NCBI GenBank assembly: GCA_020161265.1
Contig: JAIUOC010000003.1
Coordinates: 299,024-363,023 of the forward strand
Length of the DNA stretch: 64,000 bases
Source of the DNA: Chloroflexota bacterium
Lineage (GTDB): Bacteria; Chloroflexota; Chloroflexia; Chloroflexales; Herpetosiphonaceae
Reading direction: 5' to 3'
Shown here: positions 16,744 through 58,307 of the stretch, one piece after another
Position numbering within the stretch: position 1 is the first letter of the stretch
Layout: each line of letters starts with the position of its first letter
Translations under genes and position numbers: made by a program
The notes under the pieces: model-generated
Database searches by the model: none
Told to the model about the DNA's origin: nothing
What the model saw: only the letters and a program-made list of their open reading frames with translations

Positions 16744-16833
16744 ACCCTTCACTGCTCTTCAAAGCAGCAAAGGGCCTCACATGACCGAGGTGCAGACTGC
16801 AACCTAGCCTCGGTCACGAAAGGATGATACCTG

Positions 16834-17151: not shown

Positions 17152-17174
17152 TAGATATAGCGAGGACTATTGTT

Positions 17175-17534: not shown

Positions 17535-17696
17535 TGGAGGGTATTCATGGAATTAACCGCTGCGGCGATTCGTCGCTATGTGACCACCCGCTTGGCCACG
17601 CACATTGCTGACATACACGCGCTCCCTAGTCCACATCCTGAATGGGATGTTGGGTATCTTGATCAGTAAGTCTCTAGGAATAGCAGATGTCACTCC

Positions 17697-18002: not shown

Positions 18003-18725
18003 TGTTCGGTATGCTTGGACGGACCACCAACCAAGCTTTACTGCCCAAGGAGACTCCCCTCATGAACACGTTGCCAGCCTTGACCAGTCAACGTATTTTA
18101 AATGATACCATGGCCCTGCTCCAGACCTATATCCCACTTCAAGCCACAGGCTATCGCTGCCAGACAGCCTATGGGACGGCCTTGAGCGATCTGGCAGCAT
18201 AGATACGAGAGACCCTCGATGAACCCCTGCCGCCCCTCGTTGATCGCGAAGCCGATGGGCTGGCTATCGCGATTGACTGACTGATGATGGATGACCAGCC
18301 AGCAGTTCAAATCAGGCTGTTGGCGAATGTTTTTTTAGCGCGAAACGGTTATGATAATGGATATTGTCGCACATGGTCGGTATCGACCTGCTACCCCATA
18401 TGATGTTTAACGCGACACGTTCGCACCCCGTACTCAATTCCATGCCCCAGGCACCGCCGTTAAATCCACCCCAACCCCCGCACGATGGCCAGCAGAAGGA
18501 GTTTCCAGCTGTGGCCAAGCAACTGCGCGGACGATGGCACAACATCGCCAAACTGCACTAGCCATGTGACCCAAGAGTTGATTGGGTTGCAACTCCTCAG
18601 CACTGGCATACGTACACACCGCAGTGATACCAAGATTCCGTGTTGCACCAATCCAACTGGAGTGTCTGTCAGGTGAAAACGATACGTAGGCCCCAACAAA
18701 TAATCTTATTAGAGGAGAGACCCCT

Positions 18726-29969: not shown

Positions 29970-30008
29970 AAAAAGCAGTCATAAAAAGCAGTCATAAAAA
30001 GCAGTCAT
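29970..30008 (+). repeat. 3 perfect tandem copies of the 13-mer aaaaagcagtcat abutting the ATG cluster of the STAND regulator gene
   Basis: Direct reading gives 29970-29982, 29983-29995 and 29996-30008, all identical. Confidence 0.6.
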
Positions 30009-30013
30009 ATGCA

Positions 30014-35800: not shown

Positions 35801-38393
35801 TGCTGCCACGAACTCCACTCCTGAAAAGATCCCAAGTATAGCTATTTGGCCCAAGATTTGGTTCACCAAGCGTTCCGCTTAATGGAATTGCAGCAGTCCA
35901 GTGACCACCACCCATGCGTGAGAAGGCTAGATCAACCTGACGAGCTGGGGCATACCGCAGGCTATAGCTAATTGGTAGTTGGGGATCACTCAAAATCGTC
36001 GGGTTGGCGATCCCATCTGCGGCTAACCCACCAGGATGTTCAAGCAAGGGTTGTGGAATAACGCCTTGATGCAGGAGGTTGAAGCGTTGGTTTTGATAGA
36101 TCGCTGTGGTAATTGTATCAGCGGGATTTGTACCTTGGTTTTCGCCGCTTGCACTGAGATAAGCGATCGCTAGATCGTGATCACCATCAGCATCGGCATC
36201 GCCGCAAGCCCCGGCAAAAGCTCGCCCAGCGGTTGGGGTTGACCATAAAGCTGAGCGACTCAGGCTGCCAGCTTCGTTAAGGTACAGCCGACTGGGAGTA
36301 CCTTCGTTAAAGGCCAACAGATCAAGATCGCCGTCACCTTCGATATCACATGCTTCAAGTCCATTCGATGGGTCGTTTTCGCGTGATGACCAGATCGGTC
36401 GTACATCCAATGTTTCGCCTTGGTTGAGAAACACGCGATTTGGTTGATTATAGTTAGCAACCAAGAGATCTTGTAGACCATCGCTATTAATATCGGCCCA
36501 AGCAATATCCCGAGTCCGATCACGGTAGGTTATATTGTTCCAAAGCAGATTAAATTGATAGTGTGGGGTTAGTGCTAAGGGGTCACGTAATCCATCGTTA
36601 CGATAAACTTGGGTTGGCTGACCATCATTTGCAACCGCCAGATCGATATCGCCATCACCATCAACATCGCCCCAAGCTAGATTGCGAGTTGCCTGTACAA
36701 CTGGAGCGACCCATGCATCATACATTGTTACACTAAAGGGTTGCGTTTGACCAATTGGTGGTGGTTCAGTCGCCCGATTGCCAAGAATATAAATTGGGGC
36801 TTGATTTCGCCCGACAGCCATGTCAAGATCGCCATCATTATCAACGTCGCCAATCGCTAGCGAGGCATAGTCGGTGCCAAGCCGGACATCTTGCCAACCT
36901 GGCCGTCCATTAGGGCCAAAATTTCCATCGCCATGATTAAGAAACATGGCTAAACCTGTGCGACTTGCAGTCACCAGATCAAGCTTTCCATCCATATTCA
37001 TGTCGGCCCAAGCAATATCAAAGAGATTGTCTTGGCCAGACGATTGCCAGATGGGCGTAGTTGAGAGAGAGCCGCCGATATTCTGATAAACTTGTACTCC
37101 TTGATAACTTGCAATAGCAAGATCGAGCAAGTTATCAGCATCGAAATCGCCCCACGCCATTCCACGCACCGATATACCTACTGGAAGCGCCCATTGCGGC
37201 GCTGCAAATGGCGCTTGTCCATTGAGATACAGTCGGTTTGGATCTTCGTTATTTGAACGGATGATATCCAGATCACCATCATTATCAATATCGCCAGCCG
37301 CTAAACCATAGGATATATCCCGCTCGTTTGAAGTCCAGTCGGGAGTTTCTGGGTAAGTTCCAGCTTGTGCAAGATAGATCTGCATCGGGCCATGCGGTTG
37401 TTGTGGCGTATTACCACTCACGCTAATAACATCTAAATCATAGTCACCATCAATATCTTCTACGATTAAGTCTTGAGTTTTATCAGGGTTCGTTGACGAC
37501 CAAGTTGGGGTTAGGGCCAACGTTCCACTGATATTGTCAAAAAAGCGATTACCATGGCTTTCGCTGGCAATAAACAGCTCGGGATAGGTATCGTGATCAA
37601 TATTCCGCCATACGACACTGGTAGAGGCTTCAATTTGGGGTGCTTGCCAGACTGGATTCGCCGTAAGCAGGCCATTTAGGTTGTGATAGACTTGAGTTTT
37701 AGCGTTGCCACTATAGTTGGCAAAAGCTGCATCGAGATCATGATCGCCATCAACATCATCAAGTGCCACATAGACTGCTGGCAAGGCTATGTCCGAATTC
37801 CAGACAGGACTTGCACCCAAGGTTCCATCGCCTTGGTTGTAATACATGACTGCTTTGTTTTTATAGCAGGCAACCACAACATCTAAGTTGCCGTCGCCAT
37901 TCATATCGCCAAGTGCTAAGCTCCAACCGTGGTGAAGTAGTGGGGAGCGCCAACTTGGATGGTTTGGAAAGTGGCCCTGTTGATTGAGGTAGATTAGAAT
38001 CGGCCCATCGAAGGTGACTACAACGAGATCAAGCCAATTGTCACGATTCATATCGCCAAGGGCAATATCGCGCACCCGGTCGTTATCATCGACATCAACG
38101 TACCAACTTGGCAGTGGTTCTAGGCTCCCTCGTTGATTGCGATACATTCGAATACCGCCAGCATCGTCGCCGAAGAAAACATCGAGCCATCCATCATTAT
38201 CGCTATCACCCCAGGCGGTTGAGGTTGTTTCATAACGATCATTTGCTAGCCAAATTGGCTCAAGCGTTACTGTTTGGGGGGATGCTGGCGCAGCCAAGAG
38301 TTGCTGATTGGTGTGGGTATGTGGCAGGAAACTAAGGGTTAGCAGCAATAATGCGATGATTCGAAATCGGTGTAACGTACTCAAAAGAAACAT
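32820..38393 (-). CDS. Giant (1857 aa) secreted FG-GAP/VCBS beta-propeller repeat protein with an HExxH metallopeptidase-like motif
   Basis: Signal peptide. More than 15 'GD.D.DG..D' FG-GAP Ca-binding repeats. 'ILAHELSHYLFFMED'. The GGGYYRG x4 tandem repeat. Confidence 0.8.
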   Translation of the reverse strand: MFLLSTLHRFRIIALLLLTLSFLPHTHTNQQLLAAPASPQTVTLEPIWLANDRYETTSTAWGDSDNDGWLDVFFGDDAGGIRMYRNQRGSLEPLPSWYVDVDDNDRVRDIALGDMNRDNWLDLVVVTFDGPILIYLNQQGHFPNHPSWRSPLLHHGWSLALGDMNGDGNLDVVVACYKNKAVMYYNQGDGTLGASPVWNSDIALPAVYVALDDVDGDHDLDAAFANYSGNAKTQVYHNLNGLLTANPVWQAPQIEASTSVVWRNIDHDTYPELFIASESHGNRFFDNISGTLALTPTWSSTNPDKTQDLIVEDIDGDYDLDVISVSGNTPQQPHGPMQIYLAQAGTYPETPDWTSNERDISYGLAAGDIDNDGDLDIIRSNNEDPNRLYLNGQAPFAAPQWALPVGISVRGMAWGDFDADNLLDLAIASYQGVQVYQNIGGSLSTTPIWQSSGQDNLFDIAWADMNMDGKLDLVTASRTGLAMFLNHGDGNFGPNGRPGWQDVRLGTDYASLAIGDVDNDGDLDMAVGRNQAPIYILGNRATEPPPIGQTQPFSVTMYDAWVAPVVQATRNLAWGDVDGDGDIDLAVANDGQPTQVYRNDGLRDPLALTPHYQFNLLWNNITYRDRTRDIAWADINSDGLQDLLVANYNQPNRVFLNQGETLDVRPIWSSRENDPSNGLEACDIEGDGDLDLLAFNEGTPSRLYLNEAGSLSRSALWSTPTAGRAFAGACGDADADGDHDLAIAYLSASGENQGTNPADTITTAIYQNQRFNLLHQGVIPQPLLEHPGGLAADGIANPTILSDPQLPISYSLRYAPARQVDLAFSRMGGGHWTAAIPLSGTLGEPNLGPNSYTWDLFRSGVRGSNDTMAVQLRMYPSVLPQAHSTAGSYRYGAYTTNSFPFRVRGTGVRVLHATAEQPPIAAAGAIVYRLGAGQSGGGRPMAASQGSAPFITDGQGYLQGQSELRPDDRLIALVPITTTYAYSLYHTNGVPTEMGLDGWTITTPGTQELIARPEHPLLLFNLKIALEWDASHSPTYLQKLESDLHRASRYLYDFTNGQVALGKISVYQNGEQLNYADVVIHATNRLRPFASEGGIVLTKTLDLEHPEVIYDIGQVHIGSHWNRNGIPGEDISTDWSVILAHELSHYLFFMEDTYLGIQADQLLVPVDTCAGSAMGDVYLPTNTEFVFDPEVWQAHCQETLAAQELKRTEWETLRLWYPALITPTMPLAGPQQMPFVFTNVQIVDPLTPTTPLVDPTLYLEYAGNTTSSAKARGFLITNQQTPALTDDTIMPLGSTVNNQNRILGRGAQPGDRFCLFDRGTQHFGCEVLSIDDQYITLKHDAAWKPLVTLSPVTSTTLKLQVTGIQPGLSLQARLFPDDGSAGSPVLLEHFGDGYRGSLVSQYPSMSGHIQVWVEEPASETNPRRETLIAYSIGGNPGYYRGGGGYYRGGGGYYRGGGGYYRLGGAPLLSPDGQMTFYTKATFEVGQFYAIQEMAELPALPAGVVNVGQGYQLVTAQQTQPISGSVSFQYLGYDLITANVEEPDLAIGFWNGTYWERLSTVLNTTYNVAAAHAPKPGIYTLIGGHSQPSVQSLTPTMITSGLTNTLLVSGNNLLAPATLHLQTLTSTISLSVTLHNSSSGSITLTAALAPGYYRTSLTNGDGSSVPAPALALYPPTPACFAETFNSQLGKWQIQGTWATSRLASGEVALDDSPGHAYAQAVAPNQYLTSTLTFHEPINLANCQHPVLSFEHDYVFARTAAGDDHGSVEVSTDNGLTWQIIADFTGGGAHGLRPATPSSDEWSTPHWKPVRISLRSFQNQTIRLRLRMTVDRDGSDRGWLLDNLMINQSQPIYLPLINR
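34000..34082. repeat. Perfect 21-bp tandem repeat (3 exact copies plus 1 degenerate) inside the FG-GAP gene, encoding (GGGYYRG)n
   Basis: accgccaccaccgcgatagta at 34020-34040, 34041-34061 and 34062-34082. Confidence 0.7.
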
Positions 38394-47368: not shown

Positions 47369-48844
47369 CTACTCGATACTAAAAACCATTTCAACATCAC
47401 CAATCCGAATCCGGTCACCAGGCCGCAGATGGTGCGGTTGATAGGCAGTCATTGGCACGCCATTGATGCTTGTGCCATTGATGCTGCCCAAATCAATTAA
47501 TAAATGATGATCACCCTGTTGTTCGATCACGGCATGGCGGCGCGAGGCCACACCCCGATCATGCTCAGCCAAATCGATCTCAGGATGATGATTTTGCGCC
47601 GGATCACGCCGCCCAATTCGGCAAGGAAAGTGGGTTAATGCCAATTCCCACACAGCGCGGGGCGAAGTAATCACTAGCTTGGGCACAGCCCGTTTGATTG
47701 CCGCGCCACAACCAGCGCAAAACCGCGCATTAGGTTTATTCATGCGGCCACATTGATCGCAAATTGGGCCATTAGCCTGGGGCGGCGGCGACCAAGCTGG
47801 GGTTTGGACGGGCGGTGCCCACGATGGGGCTGGCTGTGGCACAGGTTGCGGCATTGGCTGTTGATATTGTGGCGGACTGGGATTGCCCCAAGCTGGCGCA
47901 GGGTTTGGGTTCGGATTACCCCAGGCTGGCGCAGGGTTTGGATTGGGATTATTGAAAACTGGTGCTGGCATCGACATCATGGTTGGATCATCGCGCTTAT
48001 CGGGCACAATCACCCCACGATCAACCGCCAACAATGCTTGCTCAAACGAAGCCATGGTCTGAAAGCGCTTCTCGCGATCCATTGCCATCGACCGAATAAT
48101 CACCTGCTCCATCTCTGGGGTAACCGATTGATTATGTTTGATCAGCGAGCCATCTTTGGGAGTTTGCAGCGGCACAGGTGGCAGGTTAGTCAACATATGC
48201 AGCAAGGTTGCGCCCAAGGCATAAATATCAGCCCGCGCATCAGTTTGGCCCTTGCCATATTGCTCAGGTGGCGCATAGCCAGCCGACCCCATAGCCACGG
48301 TATCTTTACTTTTATTGGTTTTGTAGGTTCGCGCCACGCCAAAATCGATCAGCTTAATAATGCCTTCAGGCGTGAGCATCACATTCGGCGGCTTCATATC
48401 ACGAAAAATAATTGGGGGATTTTGGCTATGCAAATAATTAAGCACACGAGCAATCTGCACGCCCCAATTCAGCACATCACGTTGAAAAAATGGCGCGTTC
48501 ATTTCACGCTGCTTATCTTCAAGCGTTTTGCCTTGGACAAACTCCATCACCAGCGTGGGGCGACCAGCCTGCTCAAATGAATCGACCACTTTGGGCAAGT
48601 TGGGATGATCGAGCGTTTGCAATAATTGCGCTTCTTGGTCAAAGAGCTTGCGATTTTCGGCAATTTCCTCGGGAGCGGCCTCGGCTGGTGGGCGCATCTC
48701 TTTAACCGCCCAGGTTGAGCCATCGCTGAGGCGCTCGCCACGATAGACCGCGCCCATGCCCCCGCGCCCGATGATGCCGAGAATCCGATATTGATCGTGT
48801 TGTCCTTGAAGGATCGTGCCATCAGGCAGCAAATCAGCAAACAC
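47369..48844 (-). CDS. Ser/Thr protein kinase with a Pro-rich repeat linker, a zinc ribbon and a C-terminal FHA domain
   Basis: Kinase motifs 'AVKEM', 'FRDMKPPNV' and 'DFG'. '(NPNPNPAPAWG)x2'. 'CDQCGR...CAGCG'. FHA-like C-terminus '...RRHAVIE...GSINGTSINGV'. Confidence 0.8.
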   Translation of the reverse strand: MFADLLPDGTILQGQHDQYRILGIIGRGGMGAVYRGERLSDGSTWAVKEMRPPAEAAPEEIAENRKLFDQEAQLLQTLDHPNLPKVVDSFEQAGRPTLVMEFVQGKTLEDKQREMNAPFFQRDVLNWGVQIARVLNYLHSQNPPIIFRDMKPPNVMLTPEGIIKLIDFGVARTYKTNKSKDTVAMGSAGYAPPEQYGKGQTDARADIYALGATLLHMLTNLPPVPLQTPKDGSLIKHNQSVTPEMEQVIIRSMAMDREKRFQTMASFEQALLAVDRGVIVPDKRDDPTMMSMPAPVFNNPNPNPAPAWGNPNPNPAPAWGNPSPPQYQQPMPQPVPQPAPSWAPPVQTPAWSPPPQANGPICDQCGRMNKPNARFCAGCGAAIKRAVPKLVITSPRAVWELALTHFPCRIGRRDPAQNHHPEIDLAEHDRGVASRRHAVIEQQGDHHLLIDLGSINGTSINGVPMTAYQPHHLRPGDRIRIGDVEMVFSIE

Positions 48845-49107
48845 AGTTTCCCCCGCCGCTACATGATTGCGTAGCCTGTATTATCAACGATTGATACGCC
48901 AAAAGTCAAAGGGTTGTGGCAACTATTAATCAACAATTAAGCAAAAAAACTCAACTTAGCTGCAAAAAAATCACGCCAAATTGCATCTATACCTAGTACA
49001 GGCTGTGCTTGACAATCCTTGGTAGGATAGGACGTATCTCCTAGCGTTCCACCAAGCCACACCAATATACCACTCTCTGTTGCCAATTAGTTCTCTGGGG
49101 AGTTGTA

Positions 49108-50949
49108 ATGTCGCATTTATTACTAATCACGATTGGTCCAGTTCAAGATTTCATCGCCAGTGCTCGCCGAACCCGCGACCTCTGGTTTGGTTCGTGGCTG
49201 CTCAGCGAGTTGTCCAAAGCGGCGGCACAAAGCATTTATCAAGCTAAAGGTAATTTGATCTTTCCTTATCCAACCGATTCTGACCAAGATTTAGAGGCAA
49301 ATAGTGCTTTCAATGTACCCAACAAAATTCTGGCCGAGGTAGAGGGCGATGTCAAAACGATTGCTGACGCAGCCAAAAATGGCTTGGATACCCGCTTGAA
49401 CGAAATTCGTAACGGGGCATTTGCAAAAGTAACTGGTGCGTTTGATCAAGCCCGAGCCAATGACCAAATCAATGCTTTGATGGAATTCAATTGGGTTGCC
49501 CTGCCCTTAGGGACTGATTATGCGAAAACTCGCGAGCAGCTTGAACACCTGATGGCAGCTCGCAAAAATACTCGTAATTTTAGCGAGGTGACGTGGGGCA
49601 CTCGTGCTCCAAAATCCTCAATCGATGGCGAACGTGAATCGGTGATTGATGAAAAATACTATCCCCCTGCTGGGATGGCGAATACCTCGCCAGAATACGC
49701 CAAAATCGTGACTAGGCTCTATCGTGATTATGGAATCAACGTTGGTGAACGTTTATCAGGCGTTGATATTCTTAAACGTCATGGTCAAAAAGGTGCCGAT
49801 TCAAGATTTCCAAGCACCTCGCATATGGCTGCTATACCTGTTTTTAATTATTTGCTTGGAATGAATACCAAAGAGCAAAGTAAAAATAAGGTAGCCCAAT
49901 CGTGGGATACATACATTGCTAATTTAAATACTATTCCTGCGGCACAAGAATATATTCGCAATGAAGTTACTCCCAAATCACAGGATATTTTTAAAGATTA
50001 TGATGGTTCGCTCCTCTTTGCTGAACGTTTTAATGATGCTTTGGTAGGGGATGATCTGAAGAATGCTCAAAAATATCTGCATGATTTCTTAAAACCATTT
50101 CTTGATACTACAACTCCGATTCCCTACTATGCCATTCTGCATGCTGATGGTGATGCGATGGGGAAATTTATTAATGCGACCCATAGAATGGATGAACATC
50201 AAGACATTTCTGAAAAATTAACTAGATTTGCGGGAAATGTTAAGTTGATCGTGGAGAAACATCAAGGAGCCTTAGTCTATTCGGGCGGCGATGACGTTTT
50301 AGCATTTTTACCACTAACAAGTAGCTTTGAAATTCAAGAAAGTGACAATAAACGTTTCGCAACAGTTTTTGATTGTGCTGCTGAATTAGCTGATGAGTTC
50401 AAACAAAAACTTGCTAATTCAATGGTATCACTCTCGGTTGGCATTGCGATTGTGCATCACCTCGAGCCATTATCCGATGCCTTAGATTTAGCGCGTAAGG
50501 CTGAGCAGAAAGCCAAAGCTGTAACAGGTAAAAATGCGCTGGCAATCAACCTCAGCAAACGCGGCGGCGCAGATCGAATTATCGCCGGATCGTGGGCTAA
50601 ACCTGAGGGTCAGTTTTCGTTATATGAACGACTGACGCACCTAATCGAGTTACATCAAGCCGAGCAAATTCCCCTCGGCTTTGCCTTTGAACTGCACGAT
50701 TTATCTATTCGCCTAAAAGACTTGCCCGCCAACATTTTTCACGCCGAAGCCAAACGAATCATCGAGCGCAAGCATACAAGCAACGGTAAAAAAGTTAAGG
50801 ATACTATTGCAGGGCAATTACTCAAAATGATTGATGATTTGTTATTAGATCAAAATACCAAGCCTCATTCTGGTATTCAACAATTTGCTGATGAAGTCAT
50901 TATTGCCGAATTTATTGCTAAAGCACAGAAGCTCGCCAATGGAAATTAA
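49108..50949 (+). CDS. cmr2: Type III-B Cas10/Cmr2, short form lacking the HD domain and the Cys4 zinc finger. The GGDD cyclase motif is intact.
   Basis: N-terminal 'ITIGPVQDFIASARRTRDLWFGSWLLSEL', palm-1 'ILHADGDAMGKF', palm-2 'LVYSGGDDVLAFLPL'. The protein has a single Cys. 613 aa. Confidence 0.75.
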   Translation: MSHLLLITIGPVQDFIASARRTRDLWFGSWLLSELSKAAAQSIYQAKGNLIFPYPTDSDQDLEANSAFNVPNKILAEVEGDVKTIADAAKNGLDTRLNEIRNGAFAKVTGAFDQARANDQINALMEFNWVALPLGTDYAKTREQLEHLMAARKNTRNFSEVTWGTRAPKSSIDGERESVIDEKYYPPAGMANTSPEYAKIVTRLYRDYGINVGERLSGVDILKRHGQKGADSRFPSTSHMAAIPVFNYLLGMNTKEQSKNKVAQSWDTYIANLNTIPAAQEYIRNEVTPKSQDIFKDYDGSLLFAERFNDALVGDDLKNAQKYLHDFLKPFLDTTTPIPYYAILHADGDAMGKFINATHRMDEHQDISEKLTRFAGNVKLIVEKHQGALVYSGGDDVLAFLPLTSSFEIQESDNKRFATVFDCAAELADEFKQKLANSMVSLSVGIAIVHHLEPLSDALDLARKAEQKAKAVTGKNALAINLSKRGGADRIIAGSWAKPEGQFSLYERLTHLIELHQAEQIPLGFAFELHDLSIRLKDLPANIFHAEAKRIIERKHTSNGKKVKDTIAGQLLKMIDDLLLDQNTKPHSGIQQFADEVIIAEFIAKAQKLANGN

Positions 50950-50974
50950 TCCAACAAGTTTTTGGAGGATTGCT

Positions 50975-52450
50975 ATGACTACACGCCGAGAACGTTCTAA
51001 GCAAAAGCAACAAGCCAAAAGGCAAAACAGCAGCAATATCCAATTGGTTGAGCAAACATTGCTAACACCAACCATTGATCAAATAGCTGAACCAACAATT
51101 GAGTCGGATAATTCAATTCAAGTTGAGGCAAACTCAGATCAACCAACCAACGCTGAAACTACAACTCAGCAAGCGTGGCTGATCGAGCCGCGTGACCCGT
51201 TGATTGTGCGCGATGGCCGACCGTTTAACAATACACTAGGAGCACGCGCCTATACCCAGTCGTTTCCACCACCATCAGTTTTGGCTGGGGTTATTCGATC
51301 CCAAACCGCCTATGCAACAAATATGCGGCTTACCCTTGATAATGGTAAACCTAATCAACCTAAGCTTGATCTGCTTAAACAAATAAAAATTTATGGACCA
51401 TTGCTATTCAAATTGCCCAATCCAAACAAAGAAAAAAATGAGCCTGAATTCCTATGTGCTGCACCTGCCGATGCACTGTTATTTGAGCCTGAGGCCAAAA
51501 CCGAGGCCCAAGAATCCGACAATCAACAATCACCCGCAACTCGACCTTGGCTCTGCCGCTTGATGCCAATTCAGGTTCCTGAAGGGTTCGTCTGCGATTT
51601 TAATGAACTTGGCTTGGTTGGTTTAGTCAAAGCTGATCCACGTAAGCCAGCCAAAGAGCAACCGCAATTTTGGTATTGGAAGCATTTTCTGCAATGGTTG
51701 CAAGATCCTGAAGGATTGATCAATAAGACCAATCCTCAAGCCTCAAACCCCAAGACAATCGCCATGGGAGATTTGGGAATTAAAGGCTTACCAATTGATC
51801 AACGAACGCATGTACAGATTGATAGTGAGAGCCAAAGTGCTGAAGATGGCCGCTTATTTCAAACCCGTGGCCTAAGTTTTACCCAAACCAACGAGCAACA
51901 ATTAGCAGAAGCGCGGCGTTTGGCATTATATGTGCACGCCGATTACCGCGATATAACTGGTTTAAGCATTCCACAGCCAAGCATTGCCCCCTTGGGCGGC
52001 GAACGCCGTTTGGCTCATTGGGCAACAACCAATCATAACTTACCAGCATGCGATCAAGCTATTCTCGACGCAATCGTAGAAGCCAACGCCTGTCGCGTAA
52101 TTCTGCTCACCCCAGCGATGTTTGAACATGGCTATCGCCCAACTTGGCTTTGTCGCGAGGTTGATGGGGTGCAGCCAACACTTGCAGCAATCGCGATCAA
52201 GCGTGCTCAAGTTATTTCAGGCTGGGATTTAGCAGCACGTGGCGCTAAACCAACTCGCCGCCTAGCTCCTGCTGGCACAGTCTTTTTCCTCTCGCTAGTA
52301 GGCGAAAAACCTGCAATTGAAGCTTGGGTTCGCAACTATTGGATGCGTTGTATTAGCGATGCCGACCAAGATCGCCGCGATGGCTTTGGGTTAGCAGTGC
52401 TCGGAGTTTGGGATGGGACGTTCGCTGAAATTAAGGGGGTAACCAAATGA
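50975..52450 (+). CDS. cmr3: Type III-B Cmr3 (Cas5 family)
   Basis: 'WLIEPRDPLIVRDGRPF...SFPPPSVLAGVIRS' is a typical Cmr3 N-terminus. GGAGG RBS. Confidence 0.7.
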   Translation: MTTRRERSKQKQQAKRQNSSNIQLVEQTLLTPTIDQIAEPTIESDNSIQVEANSDQPTNAETTTQQAWLIEPRDPLIVRDGRPFNNTLGARAYTQSFPPPSVLAGVIRSQTAYATNMRLTLDNGKPNQPKLDLLKQIKIYGPLLFKLPNPNKEKNEPEFLCAAPADALLFEPEAKTEAQESDNQQSPATRPWLCRLMPIQVPEGFVCDFNELGLVGLVKADPRKPAKEQPQFWYWKHFLQWLQDPEGLINKTNPQASNPKTIAMGDLGIKGLPIDQRTHVQIDSESQSAEDGRLFQTRGLSFTQTNEQQLAEARRLALYVHADYRDITGLSIPQPSIAPLGGERRLAHWATTNHNLPACDQAILDAIVEANACRVILLTPAMFEHGYRPTWLCREVDGVQPTLAAIAIKRAQVISGWDLAARGAKPTRRLAPAGTVFFLSLVGEKPAIEAWVRNYWMRCISDADQDRRDGFGLAVLGVWDGTFAEIKGVTK

Positions 52451-53877
52451 ATCGTAAACCAACTATTGATGCACCGGATCTGGAAAATTATCAATTACCC
52501 AATCAATTTACTGTTGGCGAACATACCTATATCACCGAAACCCGCAGCTACAAGCTGATCACCCCATTATTTGGTGGCGGCATCGAGGCTGGAGTGAATG
52601 ACCCAATCACGCCTATTCGTGCTAGTGGCATTCGCGGCCAATTGCGCTTTTGGTGGCGAGCTATTCGCGGCGGCGGCTATAGCTCAATTGATGATTTACG
52701 GGCAAAAGAGGCTGAGATTTGGGGTAGTGCTAATACAAATAGTGATTCGAAGAAAAATCGACAACTTTTTAGATCGGTGCAAATTAACGTTACTGAGGTT
52801 ATTCATACTCAAAATGAAAAAAAGAAGTATGAAATTACTCCATACGAAGTCATAAAAAAAGATGGTAAGTACTCAGTCACTATAACTCGAAACAATCCTA
52901 TTCCTAGATATGCAGTATTCCCACTACAACCAACTACTGAGGAAGCACAAGAGATAAAAGATAACAAACAAGATAAGCGCATTAAAAAACTTACCCATAA
53001 TATCCATTTTGATTTAGAGATTACATATCACGAAAGTTTTGAACTTGAAATTCAATCTGCATTATGGGCATGGGAGACATTTGGTGGAGTTGGTGGTCGT
53101 ACCCGACGTGGATTTGGTTCGATCAAAAGACTTGATAATCTTACATATCCTAAAACTATAAAGGATTTCAGACAATGGCTTATTAAAAATTTTGAAAATT
53201 ACAGTGTACTAACATATCTGCATGAAAAATTGCCTCAACTAAATATTAATAACCCTATTCGATTTATGATCTTTTATAAAACAAAAAAACAAGGTTTATT
53301 TGGAATGTGGAGGGATTTGATAGAACAATTGAAATATTTTCGGCAAGCAAAAAATACTGATGGAACAAGTCTTTGGCCTGAACCAAATCAGATTCGTAGA
53401 ATTACAAAACAATATCTTAAGCATCATAATCCAGATAATGTTCAAGCAAATCCGCAGTATAAGATAATCAAGGCATTCCCTCGTGCCCAGTTTGGATTAC
53501 CAATCATTTTTCAGTTTAAAGGTAATAGATATGGATCTAATAGGAAAGATTTAGATCCTCGTCCTACAACTCTTGGATTAGTAAATCCCAATGATTCAAC
53601 AAAAGATAATGAGCGTTTAGCCAGCCCACTTATCTTAAAAACCTTCCAATGTACAAATGGAGATAGCATAGGGTTAGCATTTATTTTATCAGGAAGTGAA
53701 CTAGCGCCAAAAATGGAGCTAGCACTGAAGGCTAGTGGCCATCCTATATCTCCAAAATCAGAAGATCTTAGGTTTTTGTTGGAAGAAGATGAAAAAATTG
53801 ATATAGGTATTAGTGAGGTAAAAGGCAATATCCTTGAATCATTTTTAGCTTATCTTGATAAAAAAATGCCGAAATAA
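52447..53877 (+). CDS. cmr1: Type III-B Cmr1 (Cas7 family), long form
   Basis: 'TPLFGGG...PIRASGIRGQLRFWWRA' and a G-rich loop 'FGGVGGRTRRGFGS'. The central part is AT-rich and Lys/Asn-rich. Confidence 0.7.
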   Translation: MNRKPTIDAPDLENYQLPNQFTVGEHTYITETRSYKLITPLFGGGIEAGVNDPITPIRASGIRGQLRFWWRAIRGGGYSSIDDLRAKEAEIWGSANTNSDSKKNRQLFRSVQINVTEVIHTQNEKKKYEITPYEVIKKDGKYSVTITRNNPIPRYAVFPLQPTTEEAQEIKDNKQDKRIKKLTHNIHFDLEITYHESFELEIQSALWAWETFGGVGGRTRRGFGSIKRLDNLTYPKTIKDFRQWLIKNFENYSVLTYLHEKLPQLNINNPIRFMIFYKTKKQGLFGMWRDLIEQLKYFRQAKNTDGTSLWPEPNQIRRITKQYLKHHNPDNVQANPQYKIIKAFPRAQFGLPIIFQFKGNRYGSNRKDLDPRPTTLGLVNPNDSTKDNERLASPLILKTFQCTNGDSIGLAFILSGSELAPKMELALKASGHPISPKSEDLRFLLEEDEKIDIGISEVKGNILESFLAYLDKKMPK

Positions 53878-53947
53878 TCTACTGTTACTAGGTAAAAAAT
53901 ACTGTTCTCAAAGCATTTTTAGCCTATCTTGCGAAGGAGCTACGATA

Positions 53948-54829
53948 ATGACCACCAAACTCGTTTTTGTGCATGCGCTTTCACCACTTCATGCTGGCAC
54001 TGGCCAAGGCGCTGGAGTTATTGATTTGCCGATTGCCCGTGAAAAAGCCACCAACTTGCCCTATTTGCCTGGTTCATCGCTCAAAGGCCCGTTGCGCGAT
54101 AGTTACGATGGTGCTCGTAAAGACGAAATCTTTGGAACTGCATCAGATAACGCTACTGGTAACGCTGGCTACGTTCAATTTTCTGATCTGCGCTTGTTGT
54201 GCATGCCGGTGCGCAGCTTGTATGGCACCTTCGCATGGGTTACCTCGCCCTACATTCTCAATCGCCTTGCCCGCGAAATCAAAAATCTTTTTACTGAAAA
54301 CACCCCACCGAGCTGGATCGAAAACCCTGATGTCGAGCAATGCCTTGTCGTTGCCGGATCAGCACTTAAATCAAACTTGCCAAAATCAGAAAAGCACAAG
54401 GATATTTATTTAGAAGATTTAGATTTTGAATATCAAGCAGATCAAGCTGAGCTAGTGACCCAATGGGCTGATTGGCTCAAAGAGCGTATTTTTGGCGATT
54501 TACCAGAGTGGCAACCCATGTTTGTCGAGCGTTTCTGCATCGTCAATGATGATGTATTTAGTTTCCTTCTGAATACAACGACCGAAATAACTGCTCGGAT
54601 TCGGCTCAACGATGAGACCAAAACAGTTGCCGATGGTCAACTTTGGTATGAAGAAGCCTTGCCTGCCGAATCGATTTTGACTGGCTTGATGTTGATTGCT
54701 CCGCCAGCCTCAAAAACAGACGTAGGAGACAGCATTAAGACTGAGCTACCACGCCTGTGGCAAAAACCAATTCAGCTTGGGGGCAAGGCCACCGTTGGGC
54801 GTGGCATTTGTCGCGTGATTGTGAAATAG
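53948..54829 (+). CDS. cmr4: Type III-B Cmr4 (Cas7 backbone subunit)
   Basis: 'LSPLHAGTGQGAGVIDLPIAREKATNLPYLPGSSLKGPLRD'. GAAGGAG RBS before ATG 53948. Confidence 0.8.
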   Translation: MTTKLVFVHALSPLHAGTGQGAGVIDLPIAREKATNLPYLPGSSLKGPLRDSYDGARKDEIFGTASDNATGNAGYVQFSDLRLLCMPVRSLYGTFAWVTSPYILNRLAREIKNLFTENTPPSWIENPDVEQCLVVAGSALKSNLPKSEKHKDIYLEDLDFEYQADQAELVTQWADWLKERIFGDLPEWQPMFVERFCIVNDDVFSFLLNTTTEITARIRLNDETKTVADGQLWYEEALPAESILTGLMLIAPPASKTDVGDSIKTELPRLWQKPIQLGGKATVGRGICRVIVK

Positions 54830-54839
54830 GAGCAGCACA

Positions 54840-55310
54840 ATGAGTAATTCAGTCTTTCAAACTCGTGATCAACAATATGCTGCTTCAGCGTATGCTCATA
54901 TTGAAGAAGTTCTAGAAAAATATCCAAAACCGGATATTAAGTCAGATGAAAAAAACACACTGGTGTACAAAAAAAACCGCAAACGCTACGGGGTCATAGC
55001 ACATAAATTGCCTATATTAATTAGAACTGCTGGCTTAACGCAAGCATTGGCATTTATTAGTTCACGGAGTAAGAAAAATAAAACTGGCAAAGAAGATGAA
55101 TTTAGTTTATTCCTAAGCCATCTTGCAAAAACAATAAACATAGATACAAATGATCTTGTTCAATATAGTATCCAACAACCCCTATCAAATTATATGTATC
55201 TAACCCAACAGGTGCTTGATGCACTTTTATGGTATAAGCGCTTTGCTCAAAGTGTACTTGATGTTGATCCAACTGATCAACTTGATGATGAGCAGGGAGC
55301 TGAAGCATGA
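54840..55310 (+). CDS. cmr5: Type III-B Cmr5 (Cas11 small subunit)
   Basis: 156-aa helical protein between cmr4 and cmr6, e.g. 'HKLPILIRTAGLTQALAF'. Confidence 0.65.
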   Translation: MSNSVFQTRDQQYAASAYAHIEEVLEKYPKPDIKSDEKNTLVYKKNRKRYGVIAHKLPILIRTAGLTQALAFISSRSKKNKTGKEDEFSLFLSHLAKTINIDTNDLVQYSIQQPLSNYMYLTQQVLDALLWYKRFAQSVLDVDPTDQLDDEQGAEA

Positions 55311-56155
55311 GAAGCAGTCGTTTAGAGGTTAAATATGAGCATATTTCAACAAAAGATAGGCCTAGTGATTGTAATGCAGGCTTATGGCTAGATCGTTATT
55401 TATCTGATCAATCAAACGATGATGGGAATTTCAAACCAAAGCATTTCGCCGATGTTACCAAAATTGCACATCACATGCATAACTCTAAACTCTATCGAGC
55501 ATTTTTTACCCGTTGGTTGAACACATTAAAGGGGATTCCTGAGATTTGTTTGTTGAAGGCGACCGTCGAGGGCCGTATGGTCGTGGGGCTGGGAGCCGAA
55601 AGTGTGCTCGAAAACGCTATTGCCTTGCAGCGCACCTACGGCTTGCCTTACATTCCAGGCAGTGGCTTGAAAGGCTTGGCATCGAGCTTCGCTCACCAAC
55701 GCCTTGGCCAAAGCCCAGCCAACGCTGATACCCTCAACGATTGGGCTAAGGGTGGAAAATTTCATCGCGAATTATTTGGCACAACCGAGCTAAGTGGCTG
55801 CGTTAGCTTTTACGATGCTTTGTATATTCCTAATACGGCTCAGGCTGGTGGTCCATTGCATTCGGATGTGATTACTGTGCATCATCCTACGTATTATCAA
55901 GGCAATTCAACCCCGCCAGCGGATTGGGATAGCCCAGATATTATTCCGTTTCTTAGCGCAACTGGTCACTATTTAGTAGCACTCAGCGGAGACCCGAATT
56001 GGTGTAATGCCGCCCGCACCCTGCTCGCTAATGGCCTGACGCATATGGGTATTGGCGCAAAAACATCAAGCGGCTATGGCCGGATGAAACTTGGGGAAAT
56101 GTGTAAGAACGAGCAACAAATCGAAGCCCTACTTCAACGTTTGAATAAAAAATAA
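55307..56155 (+). CDS. cmr6: Type III-B Cmr6 (Cas7 family)
   Basis: 'GLGAESVLENAIALQRTYGLPYIPGSGLKGLA'. Overlaps the cmr5 stop (ATGA). Confidence 0.75.
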   Translation: MRSSRLEVKYEHISTKDRPSDCNAGLWLDRYLSDQSNDDGNFKPKHFADVTKIAHHMHNSKLYRAFFTRWLNTLKGIPEICLLKATVEGRMVVGLGAESVLENAIALQRTYGLPYIPGSGLKGLASSFAHQRLGQSPANADTLNDWAKGGKFHRELFGTTELSGCVSFYDALYIPNTAQAGGPLHSDVITVHHPTYYQGNSTPPADWDSPDIIPFLSATGHYLVALSGDPNWCNAARTLLANGLTHMGIGAKTSSGYGRMKLGEMCKNEQQIEALLQRLNKK

Positions 56156-56221
56156 GAGCGCTTTTGATGATGAGTTAAAAAGGTTTTTCATTAATTTTTA
56201 TTTTCACTTAAGGAGTCATCG

Positions 56222-57076
56222 ATGAAAATTCTTTTATCGCTAGTTGGTGCCCAACCTTTGCCGAACCTTATTCCTATCTATCACCTTAAACCAGATTTAG
56301 CATTGCTTATTTATACTGGTGGAACAGTCAAACAAGCTAATAATACTGCGGCGCTTCTAAGATCCAAAAATATTGAAACTGAAATTATATGTACGGATTC
56401 TTATGATATCTCAAAGATTACCCGACAGATAGAGGAAGGTATTTCTAATTTCAGCGCAGGTAATGAGATTTACTTTAATGTTACTGGTGGAACAAAACCG
56501 ATGTCATTTGCCGCTGCCCAGGTGGCACGAAAATACAACTTTCCTGTGGTTTATCTTGAGAGCGAAGCAGGCAAAAGTAAGTTGTATACATATGCTTGGA
56601 AAGATTTTGAATTCCATCTCATAAAAGAAGATTCTATACCACCTTGTATAGCACTAGAGGATTGGCTAGATGTTCATTTAGGCTTAGAAAATTGGTCTAT
56701 CGAGAAAGTAAAAGAGCCTTTTGAAGAAGCAGTTATAGGTATTCTGGAAAAGAATAATATTGAAATATTATCAGCTGTACGTTCTTTCTCAGGACAGATA
56801 GATTTAGATGTAATTTATCGTAAGGGTAATCATTTTGGTATTATTGAAGTGAAATGCGGAGAAAAAGGTAAAAAAATTGAAGGTATAAGACAACTTAATA
56901 CAACGGGTTTACACTTAGGTATTTATTCAAATAAGATTCTAATTATTACAGAACAACCTGGGAAATCTCAATTAGCCCTTGCAGATGCATCAAATGTGCA
57001 AATTCTTTCAGTTAATTTTGATGGCTCTACTATTGATGAAGATTCTGAAGCAAAAATATTAAATATTATTAAGTGA
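56222..57076 (+). CDS. CARF-domain protein with a C-terminal PD-(D/E)xK nuclease-like domain (Can2/Card1-like cOA-activated effector candidate)
   Basis: N-terminal 'MKILLSLVGAQPLPNLIPI' CARF-type Rossmann start and C-terminal 'IDLDVIYRKGNHFGIIEVKCGEK' (D...EVK). AT-rich gene. Confidence 0.55.
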   Translation: MKILLSLVGAQPLPNLIPIYHLKPDLALLIYTGGTVKQANNTAALLRSKNIETEIICTDSYDISKITRQIEEGISNFSAGNEIYFNVTGGTKPMSFAAAQVARKYNFPVVYLESEAGKSKLYTYAWKDFEFHLIKEDSIPPCIALEDWLDVHLGLENWSIEKVKEPFEEAVIGILEKNNIEILSAVRSFSGQIDLDVIYRKGNHFGIIEVKCGEKGKKIEGIRQLNTTGLHLGIYSNKILIITEQPGKSQLALADASNVQILSVNFDGSTIDEDSEAKILNIIK

Positions 57077-57110
57077 TATTATTCGAGTAGAATTTAACGA
57101 AGGAAACCCT

Positions 57111-57500
57111 ATGCTTCTGATTAACTTTGCGCATCCATTGACTGATAAACAGTTTGCCCAAGTTGTAGCGCTGGTCGATGAAACGCCCGAAATTCGCTTT
57201 GTCGATACCCAAGTGAGCCGCATGCGGCCTTTGGCTGAGGTTGCTTACGATTTGATTGAAAGCATCGGCTTGAAAACCGCCGATTGGCAAACAATCCCAA
57301 TTATTATCAATCCGCCGGGGCTGGCTCCATTGGCCTTGGCGGTTATCGCTGAGTTGCATGGGCGCTCCGGCTATTTTATGCCAATCATCAATATGCGCCC
57401 TGTGCCCAATACCACCCCAACCGTTTTTGAGGTAGGCGAGATTTGCAATTTGGATGCAATTCGTCAAGTCGCCCGCACTCGGCGAATTCCTAAACTGTAG
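57111..57500 (+). CDS. Small (129 aa) uncharacterized protein co-oriented with the cmr module. Possible accessory protein (Csx3/ring-nuclease-like?), unverified.
   Basis: Position and orientation only. Alternating beta/alpha pattern 'WQTIPIIINPPGLAPLALAVIAELHG'. Confidence 0.35.
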   Translation: MLLINFAHPLTDKQFAQVVALVDETPEIRFVDTQVSRMRPLAEVAYDLIESIGLKTADWQTIPIIINPPGLAPLALAVIAELHGRSGYFMPIINMRPVPNTTPTVFEVGEICNLDAIRQVARTRRIPKL

Positions 57501-57548
57501 CAGCAACACAGGGCATCGATATGATTTGATCGGTGCCCTGCATTTAAT

Positions 57549-58307
57549 CTAGCTAAACCGCCCGACATACACGGTGGTTGTGTATAAAAAGGCCACTTTG
57601 CCTTCAACCTGATGCTGTTGCCAAGCCTCAATCAACCCTTGGCGGAGCAGTTGATAGGTAGGTTGCTCAGGTGTAGGCGTATACGACGAGGAAAAAGCTC
57701 GGCCTAACAAACCAGCTTGATCAAAATATTGGGCGTTTTGGGCGGTATAGCAAGCTGGTTGGTTGCCAAAGAAATCAGCAATGCGTTGTGGTTCGATGTT
57801 GGTATGCCTGACGCTGGCGTAATCGCTGCCAAATTGGTGTAATAGCGCTTCGTATTGCTGTAAAAACGCTGTGCCGTCAAGCGAACGTTGGTTCCAAATT
57901 AAGCCTACCCAACCCTCAGGTTGTAAAATTCGTTGCCATTCGCGGCGCGTCGCCTGTGGTTCGAACCAGTGAAACGCCTGAGCCGCCGTAATCCAATCGA
58001 CGCTCTGATCGTCCAATCCCGTGGCTTCGGCGCTACCATCAACGGCTTGGAATGTGGGATAACGCTCGGCAAGTTGCAGGCTGGCTTCGCGCATCGGTGC
58101 GTTGGGTTCAACCGCATAGACAGTTGCCCCATGCTGGAGTAGTTGCTCGCTCCAAATCCCTGTGCCCGCCCCAATATCGGCCACGACTGAGTTTTGGCCA
58201 AAGCCATGGTGTTGTTGCAAGGGCACGAATATTTCGCTAGGGTAATTTGGGCGAAACTGGACATAATCAGCTACCCGATTGCTGAAGCGCTGACGATTAT
58301 CGGTCAT
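57549..58307 (-). CDS. Class I SAM-dependent methyltransferase
   Basis: Motif I 'VADIGAGTGIWS' and 'VYAVEPN'. Confidence 0.75.
   Translation of the reverse strand: MTDNRQRFSNRVADYVQFRPNYPSEIFVPLQQHHGFGQNSVVADIGAGTGIWSEQLLQHGATVYAVEPNAPMREASLQLAERYPTFQAVDGSAEATGLDDQSVDWITAAQAFHWFEPQATRREWQRILQPEGWVGLIWNQRSLDGTAFLQQYEALLHQFGSDYASVRHTNIEPQRIADFFGNQPACYTAQNAQYFDQAGLLGRAFSSSYTPTPEQPTYQLLRQGLIEAWQQHQVEGKVAFLYTTTVYVGRFS

Follow-up and report, generated by a model that had tools for sequence, protein, structure and literature searches.

A complete set of Cmr genes with no CRISPR array beside it raises a simple question: from where does such a module take its crRNAs, if it takes any? The locus lies at positions 49108-57500 of the window (the whole 64-kb stretch of Herpetosiphon-like Chloroflexota DNA that we analysed), and consists of eight co-oriented open reading frames on the + strand, in the order cas10/cmr2-cmr3-cmr1-cmr4-cmr5-cmr6-CARF nuclease-csx15, at or near the coordinates originally predicted. 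The original prediction, made from the letters alone, had left two options, that the module borrows crRNAs from a distant array or that it works as a stand-alone signalling system. The existence of a type I-B locus with cas6 and an array, described below, favours the first of these and not the second, and we think that the locus is probably functional, a type III-B (Cmr) module for interference and signalling whose crRNAs are supplied in trans.

The identity of the genes can be settled first. The profile searches that had been proposed as a check place all eight proteins in known families (TIGRFAM, Pfam, NCBIfam and PADLOC models), and the predicted series of co-oriented cas10/cmr2, cmr3, cmr1, cmr4, cmr5 and cmr6 is borne out by matches to every family. 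The full subunit set Cmr1, Cmr3, Cmr4, Cmr5 and Cmr6 is encoded in one operon, each protein scoring above the cutoff of its own model except Cmr3 against TIGR01888 (97.7 bits, just below the cutoff of 100.4). Judged from its genes, the module is thus a complete but conventional type III-B (Cmr) interference operon, and it is an ordinary representative of what was known already (the type III-B family, this form of Cas10, and Csx15).

Cas10/Cmr2 (613 aa, 49108-50949, +) matches TIGR02577 at 190 bits (cutoff 79.4 bits) together with PF12469 (Cmr2_N) and PF22335 (Cas10-Cmr2_palm2), and its sequence is that of NCBI MCA0352076.1, annotated "type III-B Cas10/Cmr2". Both palm domains are present, and residues 393-396 form the cyclase motif, which is GGDD here and in 116 of 122 homologues and GGED in the other six, while D347 and D349 are invariant across all 122. 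The Cmr2_N profile begins at residue 4, which leaves no space for an HD domain, and the HD region is likewise absent from the 120 closest homologues listed (573-690 aa) and from Thermus thermophilus Cmr2 (TtCmr2). The HD nuclease domain is found in many type III Cas10 proteins, not all, and does not define subtype III-B, so that its absence has no bearing on membership. There is a single Cys in the protein, and the treble-clef CxxC pairs are replaced by S170-S-I-D173 and S217-G-V-D220, the first replacement being common to 120 of the 122 nearest homologues, TtCmr2 among them. Motif positions and profile start therefore agree with the prediction of a Cas10 with GGDD and without HD or zinc finger. 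The label "minimal Cas10" holds as far as these losses are concerned; it does not hold as a special status, since this is how Cas10 normally looks in a very large clade that includes TtCmr2 (more than 3000 matches at E<=1e-10, with a length of 573-690 aa among the 120 matches listed).

The other subunits can be described more briefly. Cmr3 (491 aa, 50975-52450, +) matches PF09700 over the full profile (242 bits) and carries a low-complexity, poorly conserved N-terminal extension of about 67 aa, a segment that is extra by comparison with Thermus; its start is that of the gene call in locus L001, and the gene caller differs from the longest open reading frames both here (50975, not 50885) and for cmr4 (53948, not 53855). 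Cmr1 (476 aa, 52447-53877, +) is a RAMP protein (TIGR01894, 70 bits; PF03787) and the product of the most divergent module gene among Herpetosiphon genomes (38-64% amino acid identity), and Cmr6 (282 aa, 55307-56155, +; TIGR01898, 127 bits) is a second RAMP protein. Between them lie Cmr5, the Cas11 small subunit (156 aa, 54840-55310, +; PF09701, 83 bits; TIGR01881, 44 bits), and Cmr4 (293 aa, 53948-54829, +; TIGR02580, 250 bits), the predicted Cas7-type backbone and target-RNA cleavage subunit. In Pyrococcus furiosus Cmr4, D26 is the catalytic Asp for target RNA cleavage. The window protein conserves this Asp26 in an N-terminus that aligns without gaps to the P. furiosus structure 4wnz (GVIDLPIARE versus GVVDQPIQRE).

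The surroundings are as had been proposed, a divergent Ser/Thr kinase-FHA gene (47369-48844, -) next to cas10 and a convergent class I methyltransferase gene (57549-58307, -) next to csx15, and the cmr block stands out as a low-GC island (40-44% versus 50-54% in the flanks). Since a sigma-70 consensus scan of the region between the kinase-FHA gene and cas10 (48845-49107), uncalibrated for Chloroflexota, returned no convincing + strand site, we only presume that this region holds the cmr operon promoter. At the other end, a GC-rich hairpin of 12 pairs (7 of them G-C) at 57509-57540, the top terminator-like site of the region, is a likely terminator between the convergent csx15 and methyltransferase genes.

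Directly 3' of cmr6 comes the CARF plus PD-(D/E)xK nuclease-like protein of the original prediction, and here profile, fold and motif evidence concur with it. We assign this protein (284 aa, 56222-57076, +; N-terminal CARF, C-terminal PD-(D/E)xK nuclease) to the Can2/Card1 family, of which it is a compact member: it matches CARF_Card1 PF23400 (50 bits) and, from end to end, PADLOC PDLC01887 "CARF4--CARF_PDDEXK" (E=1.6e-110). The top PDB folds for its AF2 model (pLDDT 95) are Can2 (8bao and 7bdv), Cdn1 (9u49) and Card1 (6wxw), with query TM-scores of 0.65-0.75 (Foldseek E=8e-16 to 3e-15 and 0.72-0.75 for 8bao, 7bdv and 9u49), and both domains of the Can2/Card1/Cdn1 proteins (7bdv, 8bao, 6wxw, 8q3z, 9u49) are superposable on the predicted structure. 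The CARF domain is also similar in sequence to that of Can2 7bdv (E=6e-7). The Pfam model of the Card1 nuclease, PF09002, does not detect the C-terminal domain and matches only more distant homologues of 382-395 aa, yet the Card1 motif ELDVIY...IIECK aligns with DLDVIY...IIEVK in our protein. In 34 homologues the nuclease residues E168, D196, E209, K211 and Q224 (D...ExK) are invariant, as are the CARF motif GGTK (89-92), N86 and T88. The difference from the solved proteins is one of size and sequence (342-439 aa, 12-19% identical). The short-form subfamily, of which we found about 37 proteins of 285-318 aa and no member among the solved structures retrieved, has already been catalogued in silico (PDLC01887; NCBI names DUF6293, HFX_2341 and DUF1887), and the window protein, with its 284 aa, may show the smallest size at which a Can2-type nuclease still functions.

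The last gene of the module had been left as a small unknown ORF, and its record (MCA0352083.1, locus tag LCH85_08815) is annotated "hypothetical protein"; it can now be named csx15 (129 aa, 57111-57500, +), a predicted cA4 ring nuclease or sponge. The match to the NF040560 equivalog reaches 140 bits (cutoff 35; E=4.7e-41) over profile positions 1-125 of 125, and PADLOC Csx15 agrees (E=1.3e-38). Among structures, 9teu (csx15) and the Csx15 domain in 9ylu (CbCash) can be aligned with the protein, whose H8, H83 and C-terminal Arg cluster (R122/R124/R125) align with the corresponding residues of 9teu; the two aligned histidines we take to be H13 and H90 of CliCsx15. Those two residues are catalytic in CliCsx15, and Csx15 (PfCsx15, CliCsx15) is a characterised cA4 ring nuclease/sponge, a family whose features are cA4-induced head-to-tail filament formation and cA4 hydrolysis (PMC13148439). 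The likeness to PfCsx15 and CliCsx15 (PMC13148439; PDB 9teu, 9tet) thus concerns the motif-I His (H8), the central His (H83) and the Arg cluster and, for CliCsx15, the setting, a type III locus in which a cA4-type effector is the neighbouring gene; the window locus differs from those of the characterised proteins in being III-B, not III-A. For the window Csx15 either role is conceivable, that of a slow nuclease or that of a sponge.

We come now to the guides. The prediction that the 64 kb are devoid of array, cas6, cas1 and cas2 was correct: TRF, a direct-repeat search, Rfam and a k-mer array finder found no CRISPR array in the window, and none of its other ORFs of at least 120 aa is a cas6, cas1 or cas2 (large ORFs were compared with Pfam, and a set of ORFs, mostly without Pfam match, with NCBIfam). 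Such a situation is common in this clade of Cas10, for in 17 of the 32 loci whose flanks are complete no array lies closer than 10 kb.

Elsewhere, we found a type I-B contig with the order WYL-cas3-cas8-cas7-cas5-cas6-cas1-cas2-cas4, after which ATTTCAATAATTCGATCCGCCCAGAGGATACTGAAAC is repeated at least 82 times. Its Cas1 (MCA0350757.1) is labelled "MAG: Chloroflexi bacterium", the neighbouring Cas6 is MCA0350758.1, and both accessions fall inside the accession block of the MAG that contains the window (Cas10 MCA0352076.1, Csx15 MCA0352083.1), in which the csx15 locus tag implies about 1763 genes ahead of csx15. From this numbering of accessions and locus tags, the I-B locus, with cas6, cas1, cas2, cas4 and its array, very probably lies on another contig of the same Herpetosiphon-like MAG, although two metagenome scans for one sample holding both the window and the I-B contig found nothing. 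The term "orphan" is therefore right within the window and, very probably, wrong genome-wide: the same genome would keep cas6, cas1-cas2-cas4 and a large array at a separate I-B locus, which would explain why an array is missing next to the module. The closest complete genome, that of Herpetosiphon aurantiacus DSM 785, certainly has both: the cmr module sits at the corresponding place on its chromosome (70-98% amino acid identity), and the same I-B system, with cas6 and about 100 repeats, is on plasmid pHAU01. The I-B Cas1 cluster (90% identity clustering) also includes H. llansteffanensis and strain NSE202, which both carry the cmr module.

The repeats are compatible with such sharing. In its last 8 nt, ACTGAAAC, the I-B repeat agrees with an array that adjoins one related Cmr module (L017), and more generally the 3' ends of repeats next to such modules are ATTGAAAC, ACTGAAAC or ATTGCGAC, matching the 3' end of the I-B repeat. 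A point against the scheme is that the stem-loop of the I-B repeat is thermodynamically weak, no better than that of shuffled sequence.

How the parts may work together can be sketched as follows. The six Cmr proteins, identified above, would assemble into a canonical Cmr ribonucleoprotein; the I-B Cas6 would cut the repeats of the I-B array into crRNAs with the 8-nt 5' tag ACUGAAAC, which the complex would load. Binding of a complementary transcript would trigger cleavage by Cmr4 through Asp26, and Cas10, being HD-less, would presumably cut no DNA. The GGDD palm domain would make cyclic tetra-adenylate (cA4), a reading suggested by the motif and by reports that Can2-type and Csx15 partners are specific for cA4. 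Binding of cA4 to the CARF domain would switch on the PD-(D/E)xK nuclease for non-specific cutting of nucleic acids, as fold and catalytic residues suggest, and Csx15, if it behaves like its characterised homologues, would degrade or sequester cA4 and reset the response. That the signal is cA4 we infer only from these partners, activation of the nuclease by cA4 being suggested by its genomic context (a GGDD Cas10 and a Csx15 whose characterised homologues are cA4-specific). The original logic, that a GGDD cyclase is coherent with a cOA-activated CARF partner, is sustained, both being present with conserved motifs.

Two known systems help to judge this scheme. The T. thermophilus Cmr complex makes cA4, which activates CARF effectors. 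Its operon in strain HB8 (pTT27, NC_006462 151610-157896) has the identical order cas10-cmr3-cmr1-cmr4-cmr5-cmr6, and TtCmr2 (584 aa) is 36% identical to the window Cas10 from end to end. It too lacks an HD domain and has only one Cys; SSLD stands in place of the first treble-clef CxxC and A-G-P-D in place of the second, which leaves it, like the window protein, with neither Cys pair. The annotation of the 25.7 kb that we examined there shows neither cas6 nor adaptation genes; arrays lie nearby, separate from the operon. These Thermus arrays are within about 5 kb of it, whereas the window module has none for at least 49 kb on its upstream side and 6.5 kb on its downstream side; moreover, the Thermus CARF effectors are not joined to the operon end, where the window has a compact Can2-type nuclease and Csx15 directly after cmr6. 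The III-B locus of Marinomonas, the second system, reportedly has its own array and an RT-Cas1, and the window module has neither. Experiments in Marinomonas mediterranea have established that type III-B can use type I crRNAs (I-F crRNAs; PMC5576922), and co-occurrence of types I-B and III is statistically enriched (PMC7145637); the likeness to our case is that of a III-B module relying on a separate type I locus, with the differences that the partner is I-B and not I-F and that the sharing is here a proposed one.

One may still ask whether the crRNAs come in trans from other arrays with a different Cas6 (for example of type III, elsewhere in the chromosome) and not from I-B. H. aurantiacus is annotated with 11 CRISPR arrays (PMC3368417), of which one was examined here; H. 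gulosus carries the module and was not seen in the I-B Cas1 cluster at 90% identity clustering, so that some hosts may use other arrays; and a Cas6 homologue adjoins the Cmr genes in 20 of 80 related loci, which indicates that dedicated pairs of Cas6 and array exist in the clade. We nonetheless hold this source to be unlikely, since the sole array with cas6 actually found in these genomes is that of the I-B locus, the repeat tag of which recurs, as said, beside the L017 module.

It is very unlikely, in our opinion, that we are looking at the decaying or silent remains of a CRISPR-Cas island that came in by horizontal transfer and has lost its array and adaptation genes. Their absence nearby, the low GC and the lack of a detected consensus promoter upstream would fit such a history, but the sigma-70 scan is uncalibrated for this phylum, and none of the eight ORFs is broken, the catalytic residues being in place (Cas10 GGDD, Cmr4 D26, Can2-type E168/D196/E209/K211, Csx15 H8/H83). 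Furthermore, at least five Herpetosiphon-type genomes keep the module whole and syntenic, at the same slot between flanks with 87-100% protein identity, a sign that it is maintained by selection, and even the recombinant mosaics described below preserve their reading frames. Least probable of all is crRNA-independent, stand-alone cOA signalling, with Cmr proteins sensing something other than a crRNA-target duplex: the 64 kb free of array, cas6 and adaptation genes and the conservation of the array-less arrangement in five related genomes would fit it, but the module still has the full crRNA-binding backbone (Cmr1, 3, 4, 5, 6) and the Asp26 that cleaves the target, compatible arrays and cas6 occur in the same genomes, arrays adjoin the other 15 of the 32 related loci with full flanks (hence a crRNA-guided clade), and we know of no Cmr complex that works without crRNA.

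If the module is ordinary in its genes, the locus has one notable extra, a recombinational cmr mosaic between near-identical genomes. In Herpetosiphon the operon occupies a fixed chromosomal slot, and genomes with flanking genes that are 95-100% identical (protein) have Cmr subunits that are only 38-94% identical, in a sharp patchwork where the nearest relative differs gene by gene; the accessory effector set is also swapped among these loci (Can2-short, Csx1, or both). One could tentatively imagine, although we consider it rather doubtful, that the slot behaves as a recombination hot spot and that the mosaic is produced by diversifying selection on Cmr subunits and effectors through cassette-like allelic exchange. 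If this were true, such exchange of cmr cassettes could, for instance, allow these bacteria to escape phage-encoded type III anti-CRISPRs.

The eight genes at 49108-57500, all on the plus strand and tightly packed, form a type III-B module that had been read correctly but is an ordinary one: all of its components belong to described families, and its architecture is that of the Thermus Cmr system. Curated profiles agree with the original prediction for all six effector genes, namely cas10/cmr2 (TIGR02577, 190 bits), cmr3 (start at 50975 by the gene caller; PF09700, 242 bits), cmr1 (TIGR01894), cmr4 (start at 53948 by the gene caller; TIGR02580, 250 bits), cmr5 (TIGR01881) and cmr6 (TIGR01898). 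They are followed by the gene of a Can2-type protein of 284 residues (56222-57076), matched by the CARF_Card1 profile, and by a small ORF (57111-57500) that had been called unknown and is Csx15 (NF040560, 140 bits); all eight ORFs thus fall within Cas, CARF or Csx15 families. The order cas10-cmr3-cmr1-cmr4-cmr5-cmr6 is also that of the operon of T. thermophilus HB8, whose Cmr2 is 36% identical to the window Cas10 over its full length. The window Cmr3 differs from the T. thermophilus protein (361 aa) by about 67 additional low-complexity residues at its N-terminus (50975-51175), with many Q, T, E and S; this segment lies before the Pfam Cmr3 domain and is very poorly conserved (34% nucleotide identity to the Logan assembly L004).

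With a GC content of 40-44%, versus 50-54% in the flanks, the block forms a low-GC island, bordered, as originally described, by a divergent Ser/Thr kinase-FHA gene (47369-48844, minus strand) and a convergent methyltransferase gene (57549-58307, minus strand). PADLOC matches the former to the PD-T4-6 and mad6 kinases and the latter to the mad2 methyltransferase. Such matches reflect generic domains (any Hanks-type kinase would match the PD-T4-6 models), and we regard neither gene as cmr-linked defence because both belong to the conserved high-GC flank; the kinase-FHA gene was rejected as a system component since it sits in flanking sequence that is 90-100% identical, outside the island. A strong hairpin (57509-57540) lies 3' of csx15. 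An antisense ORF of 146 residues (57069-57509) was discarded, being wholly within csx15, whose profile support is strong. A sigma-70 promoter scan returned fewer sites than in shuffled sequence, and none convincing upstream of cas10.

In Cas10, Cmr2_N starts at residue 4, and there is therefore no HD domain; the GGDD motif is at 393-396, with D347-G-D349 also present upstream. The protein holds a single cysteine, and in the alignment to the closest solved Cas10 (9arw, 612 aa) it has S-S-I-D (170-173) and S-G-V-D (217-220) where that protein has the zinc-finger pairs C-S-I-C and C-G-V-C. Profile coordinates and alignment together confirm the earlier picture of a Cas10 with GGDD, but without HD domain or treble-clef zinc finger. 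The family has more than 3000 matches at E<=1e-10, the best 120 of them being 573-690 aa long. When these 120 were aligned with the window protein and T. thermophilus Cmr2, GGDD or GGED proved universal, and Ser plus Asp occupied the first zinc-finger pair in 120 of the 122 sequences; judging from this alignment, the degenerate zinc finger is not peculiar to the window gene. Cmr4 retains Asp26, the residue with which P. furiosus Cmr4 cleaves its target. The gene identities and catalytic residues of the module are directly observed.

The 284-aa protein had been described as CARF plus PD-(D/E)xK nuclease-like, and this holds on three counts: the CARF_Card1 profile, a nuclease motif that aligns to that of Card1, and an AlphaFold model (pLDDT 95) that matches Can2, Cdn1, VC1899 and Card1 across both domains. 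Its CARF domain carries an invariant GGTK motif, and E168, D196, E209, K211 and Q224 of the C-terminal domain are invariant in 34 homologues. Within the CARF4/Can2 clade it is a compact form, one that PADLOC already models as PDLC01887 (CARF4--CARF_PDDEXK, 285 positions), which covers it end to end (E=1.6e-110). Csx15 appears to retain the two histidines and the arginine cluster of CliCsx15, where these are required for cA4 binding and cleavage (PMC13148439). By analogy, we infer that the GGDD Cas10, the Can2-type nuclease and Csx15 would make a coherent cA4 signalling circuit; the loading of crRNA, cA4 as the signal, activation of the nuclease and reset by Csx15 would each proceed as in characterised homologues.

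The original prediction called the module apparently orphan. Within the window this stands: TRF, a direct-repeat search, Rfam and our own k-mer array finder, which readily recovers arrays in three control loci (L005, L011 and L012), all found no CRISPR array in the 64 kb. Beyond it, the term very probably does not hold. In H. aurantiacus, cas6 and an array exist in trans on plasmid pHAU01 (CP000876, 92-109 kb), in a type I-B locus cst1-cas7-cas5-cas3-cas6-cas1-cas2-cas4 with about 100 repeats of ATTTCAATTACTCGATCCGATTAGAGGATACTGAAAC; eleven arrays have been annotated in that genome (PMC3368417). The 90%-identity cluster of the pHAU01 Cas1 has members in H. llansteffanensis, strain NSE202 and a 'MAG: Chloroflexi bacterium' (MCA0350757.1). 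The window Csx15 has the accession MCA0352083.1, and its locus tag, LCH85_08815, places about 1763 genes before it; MCA0350757 (Cas1) and MCA0350758 (Cas6) therefore fall inside the accession block of the window's genome. This is strong but indirect evidence for a common assembly, and the presence of cas6 and an array in trans in the window's MAG is accordingly a strong inference.

The contig bearing this Cas1 (L011) reads WYL-cas3-cas8-cas7-cas5-cas6-cas1-cas2-cas4 and then continues, up to the contig end, with at least 82 copies of the repeat ATTTCAATAATTCGATCCGCCCAGAGGATACTGAAAC. The last 8 nt of this repeat are ACTGAAAC, and repeats directly beside related Cmr modules end in ACTGAAAC, ATTGAAAC and ATTGCGAC, matching its 3' end. 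Between the L011 and pHAU01 repeats there are 7 mismatches in 37 positions, of which five fall in the central segment (GCCCAGA versus GATTAGA). In L011 (1-18147) the locus, with its cas6-cas1-cas2-cas4 genes and large array, adjoins a gene for a GH5 glycoside hydrolase. Clustering at 90% identity groups this hydrolase with a chromosomally encoded H. aurantiacus protein; as the H. aurantiacus locus is on pHAU01, the I-B system has therefore moved between replicons. JGI metagenome contigs, scanned twice for exact matches to 45-50-mers of cmr1 and cas10 as a way of placing the window in the sample of the I-B contig, gave none. Comparing the I-B contig with the window in tetranucleotides and GC is uninformative because cas regions are compositionally atypical: r is 0.72-0.78, comparable to the 0.70 given by an unrelated Chloroflexota locus. 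The I-B repeat folds into a weak ATCC/GGAT stem that does not outperform shuffled sequence (z-scores -0.7 and -0.3), so the hairpin is not used as evidence.

We think that the module, locally array-less, is very probably served in trans by the type I-B locus; its crRNAs would come from the I-B array and, in H. aurantiacus, would be expected to bear a 5'-ACUGAAAC tag. Array-less type III-B systems sharing crRNAs with type I systems are already documented, and in Marinomonas it is established that type III-B modules use crRNAs of type I origin (PMC5576922). Of the two options first proposed, crRNAs from a distant array are favoured by the finding of the I-B locus. The other, a stand-alone signalling system independent of crRNA, fits the empty window but is unlikely, because the module has kept its full crRNA-binding backbone as well as the cleavage residue, and arrays compatible with it exist. 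That the module is a decaying remnant is also unlikely, since its genes are undamaged and have been kept in several genomes.

The window Cas10 is identical to MCA0352076.1 of a 'Chloroflexi bacterium' MAG, and its closest named relatives are from Herpetosiphon species. The same slot, between kinase-FHA and methyltransferase genes, holds cmr genes in five other places: H. gulosus, H. llansteffanensis, the Logan assemblies L004 and L001 (the latter with an identical Cas10) and the H. aurantiacus DSM 785 chromosome (CP000875, about 804,100-812,600). No CRISPR array was found beside the module in these five, within retrieved flanks of up to 10 kb on each side. A scan of species-representative genomes with the Cas10 alignment confirmed at least 582 loci out of the 600 pattern matches listed, and 80 of these loci were fetched. 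Among these 80, an array was present in 15 and absent in 17 of the 32 with full 10-kb flanks, and Csx15 occurred in 21, a short Can2 in 10 and a Csx1-like gene in 15; the array-less state and the Csx15/short Can2 accessory set are both common in the Cas10 clade.

Flanking proteins of the window are 95-100% identical to those of H. gulosus, H. aurantiacus and L004 and 87-94% to those of H. llansteffanensis, but its Cmr proteins only 38-94% to those of the same relatives. Nucleotide identity in 300-nt sliding windows against these four reveals a patchwork in which the nearest relative changes sharply between segments: 50000-50600 is 85-89% identical to H. gulosus and L004 versus about 60% to H. 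aurantiacus, 53300-53900 is 84-98% identical to H. gulosus versus 43-49% to H. aurantiacus, and 54800-55400 is 93-96% identical to H. aurantiacus versus 57-65% to H. gulosus. The 3' end of cmr1 (98% to H. gulosus, 49% to H. aurantiacus) and cmr5, where the relation is reversed, illustrate this. The accessory slot 3' of cmr6 (equivalent to about 56160-56220) varies too: the window, H. aurantiacus and H. gulosus have Can2 and Csx15 only; H. llansteffanensis has a Csx1-type CARF-HEPN gene (L003 9636-10949; TIGR02221, DxTHG, R-N-D-I-A-H motif), then short Can2 and Csx15; L004 has a Csx1-type gene (16801-18141) and Csx15, and no Can2-type gene. Patchwork and variable slot point to repeated recombination of divergent alleles at a fixed locus.

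The remainder of the window consists of housekeeping and surface protein genes. Two predicted surface proteins are giants, one of 3182 aa (20153-29701, minus strand; SdrD_B, CARDB, PKD, cohesin and dockerin domains) and one of 1857 aa (32820-38393, minus strand; 11 FG-GAP repeats), and the gene of the latter includes a 21-nt tandem repeat that is perfect and in frame (34012-34082). The interval separating the two genes encodes a STAND NTPase (NB-ARC/NACHT) that also has TPR repeats (30014-32785, plus strand), and ahead of the NTPase gene a 13-nt unit occurs three times in perfect tandem (29970-30009). The superoxide dismutase gene gives 208 aa as an ORF in the window versus 200 aa as called in relatives. 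Two tandem tRNA-Asn(GTT) genes (15341-15416 and 15437-15512) start 96 nt apart and are 93% identical. Short tandem heptamer arrays, with units AAGGATG, TTCATCC, GATGAAG, CATACTT and ATAGCCT, lie at or near gene boundaries (2024-2056/2143-2172, 12964-13131 and 13789-13932); the first two (AAGGATG, TTCATCC) look nearly complementary. All these arrays are similar to the short heptamer tandem repeats known from filamentous cyanobacteria.

Two annotations of the MAG are corrected by this work: the 'hypothetical protein' MCA0352083.1 is Csx15, and the 'DUF6293 family protein' (our cluster P0121) is a Can2-type nuclease. NCBI names relatives of the latter DUF6293, HFX_2341 or DUF1887, the H. llansteffanensis orthologue being an 'HFX_2341 family transcriptional regulator domain-containing protein'; such names conceal what, from sequence, is probably a standard pair of cA4 effector and ring nuclease. 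The module itself matters little as a discovery, and mosaic recombination at the cmr slot is its sole mildly interesting aspect, the mosaic among near-identical genomes being a good data set for the diversification of type III effector complexes. H. aurantiacus DSM 785, cultivable and with a complete genome, is a host suited to the study of the proposed crRNA sharing from I-B to III-B, of the compact Can2 and of a III-B-linked Csx15.
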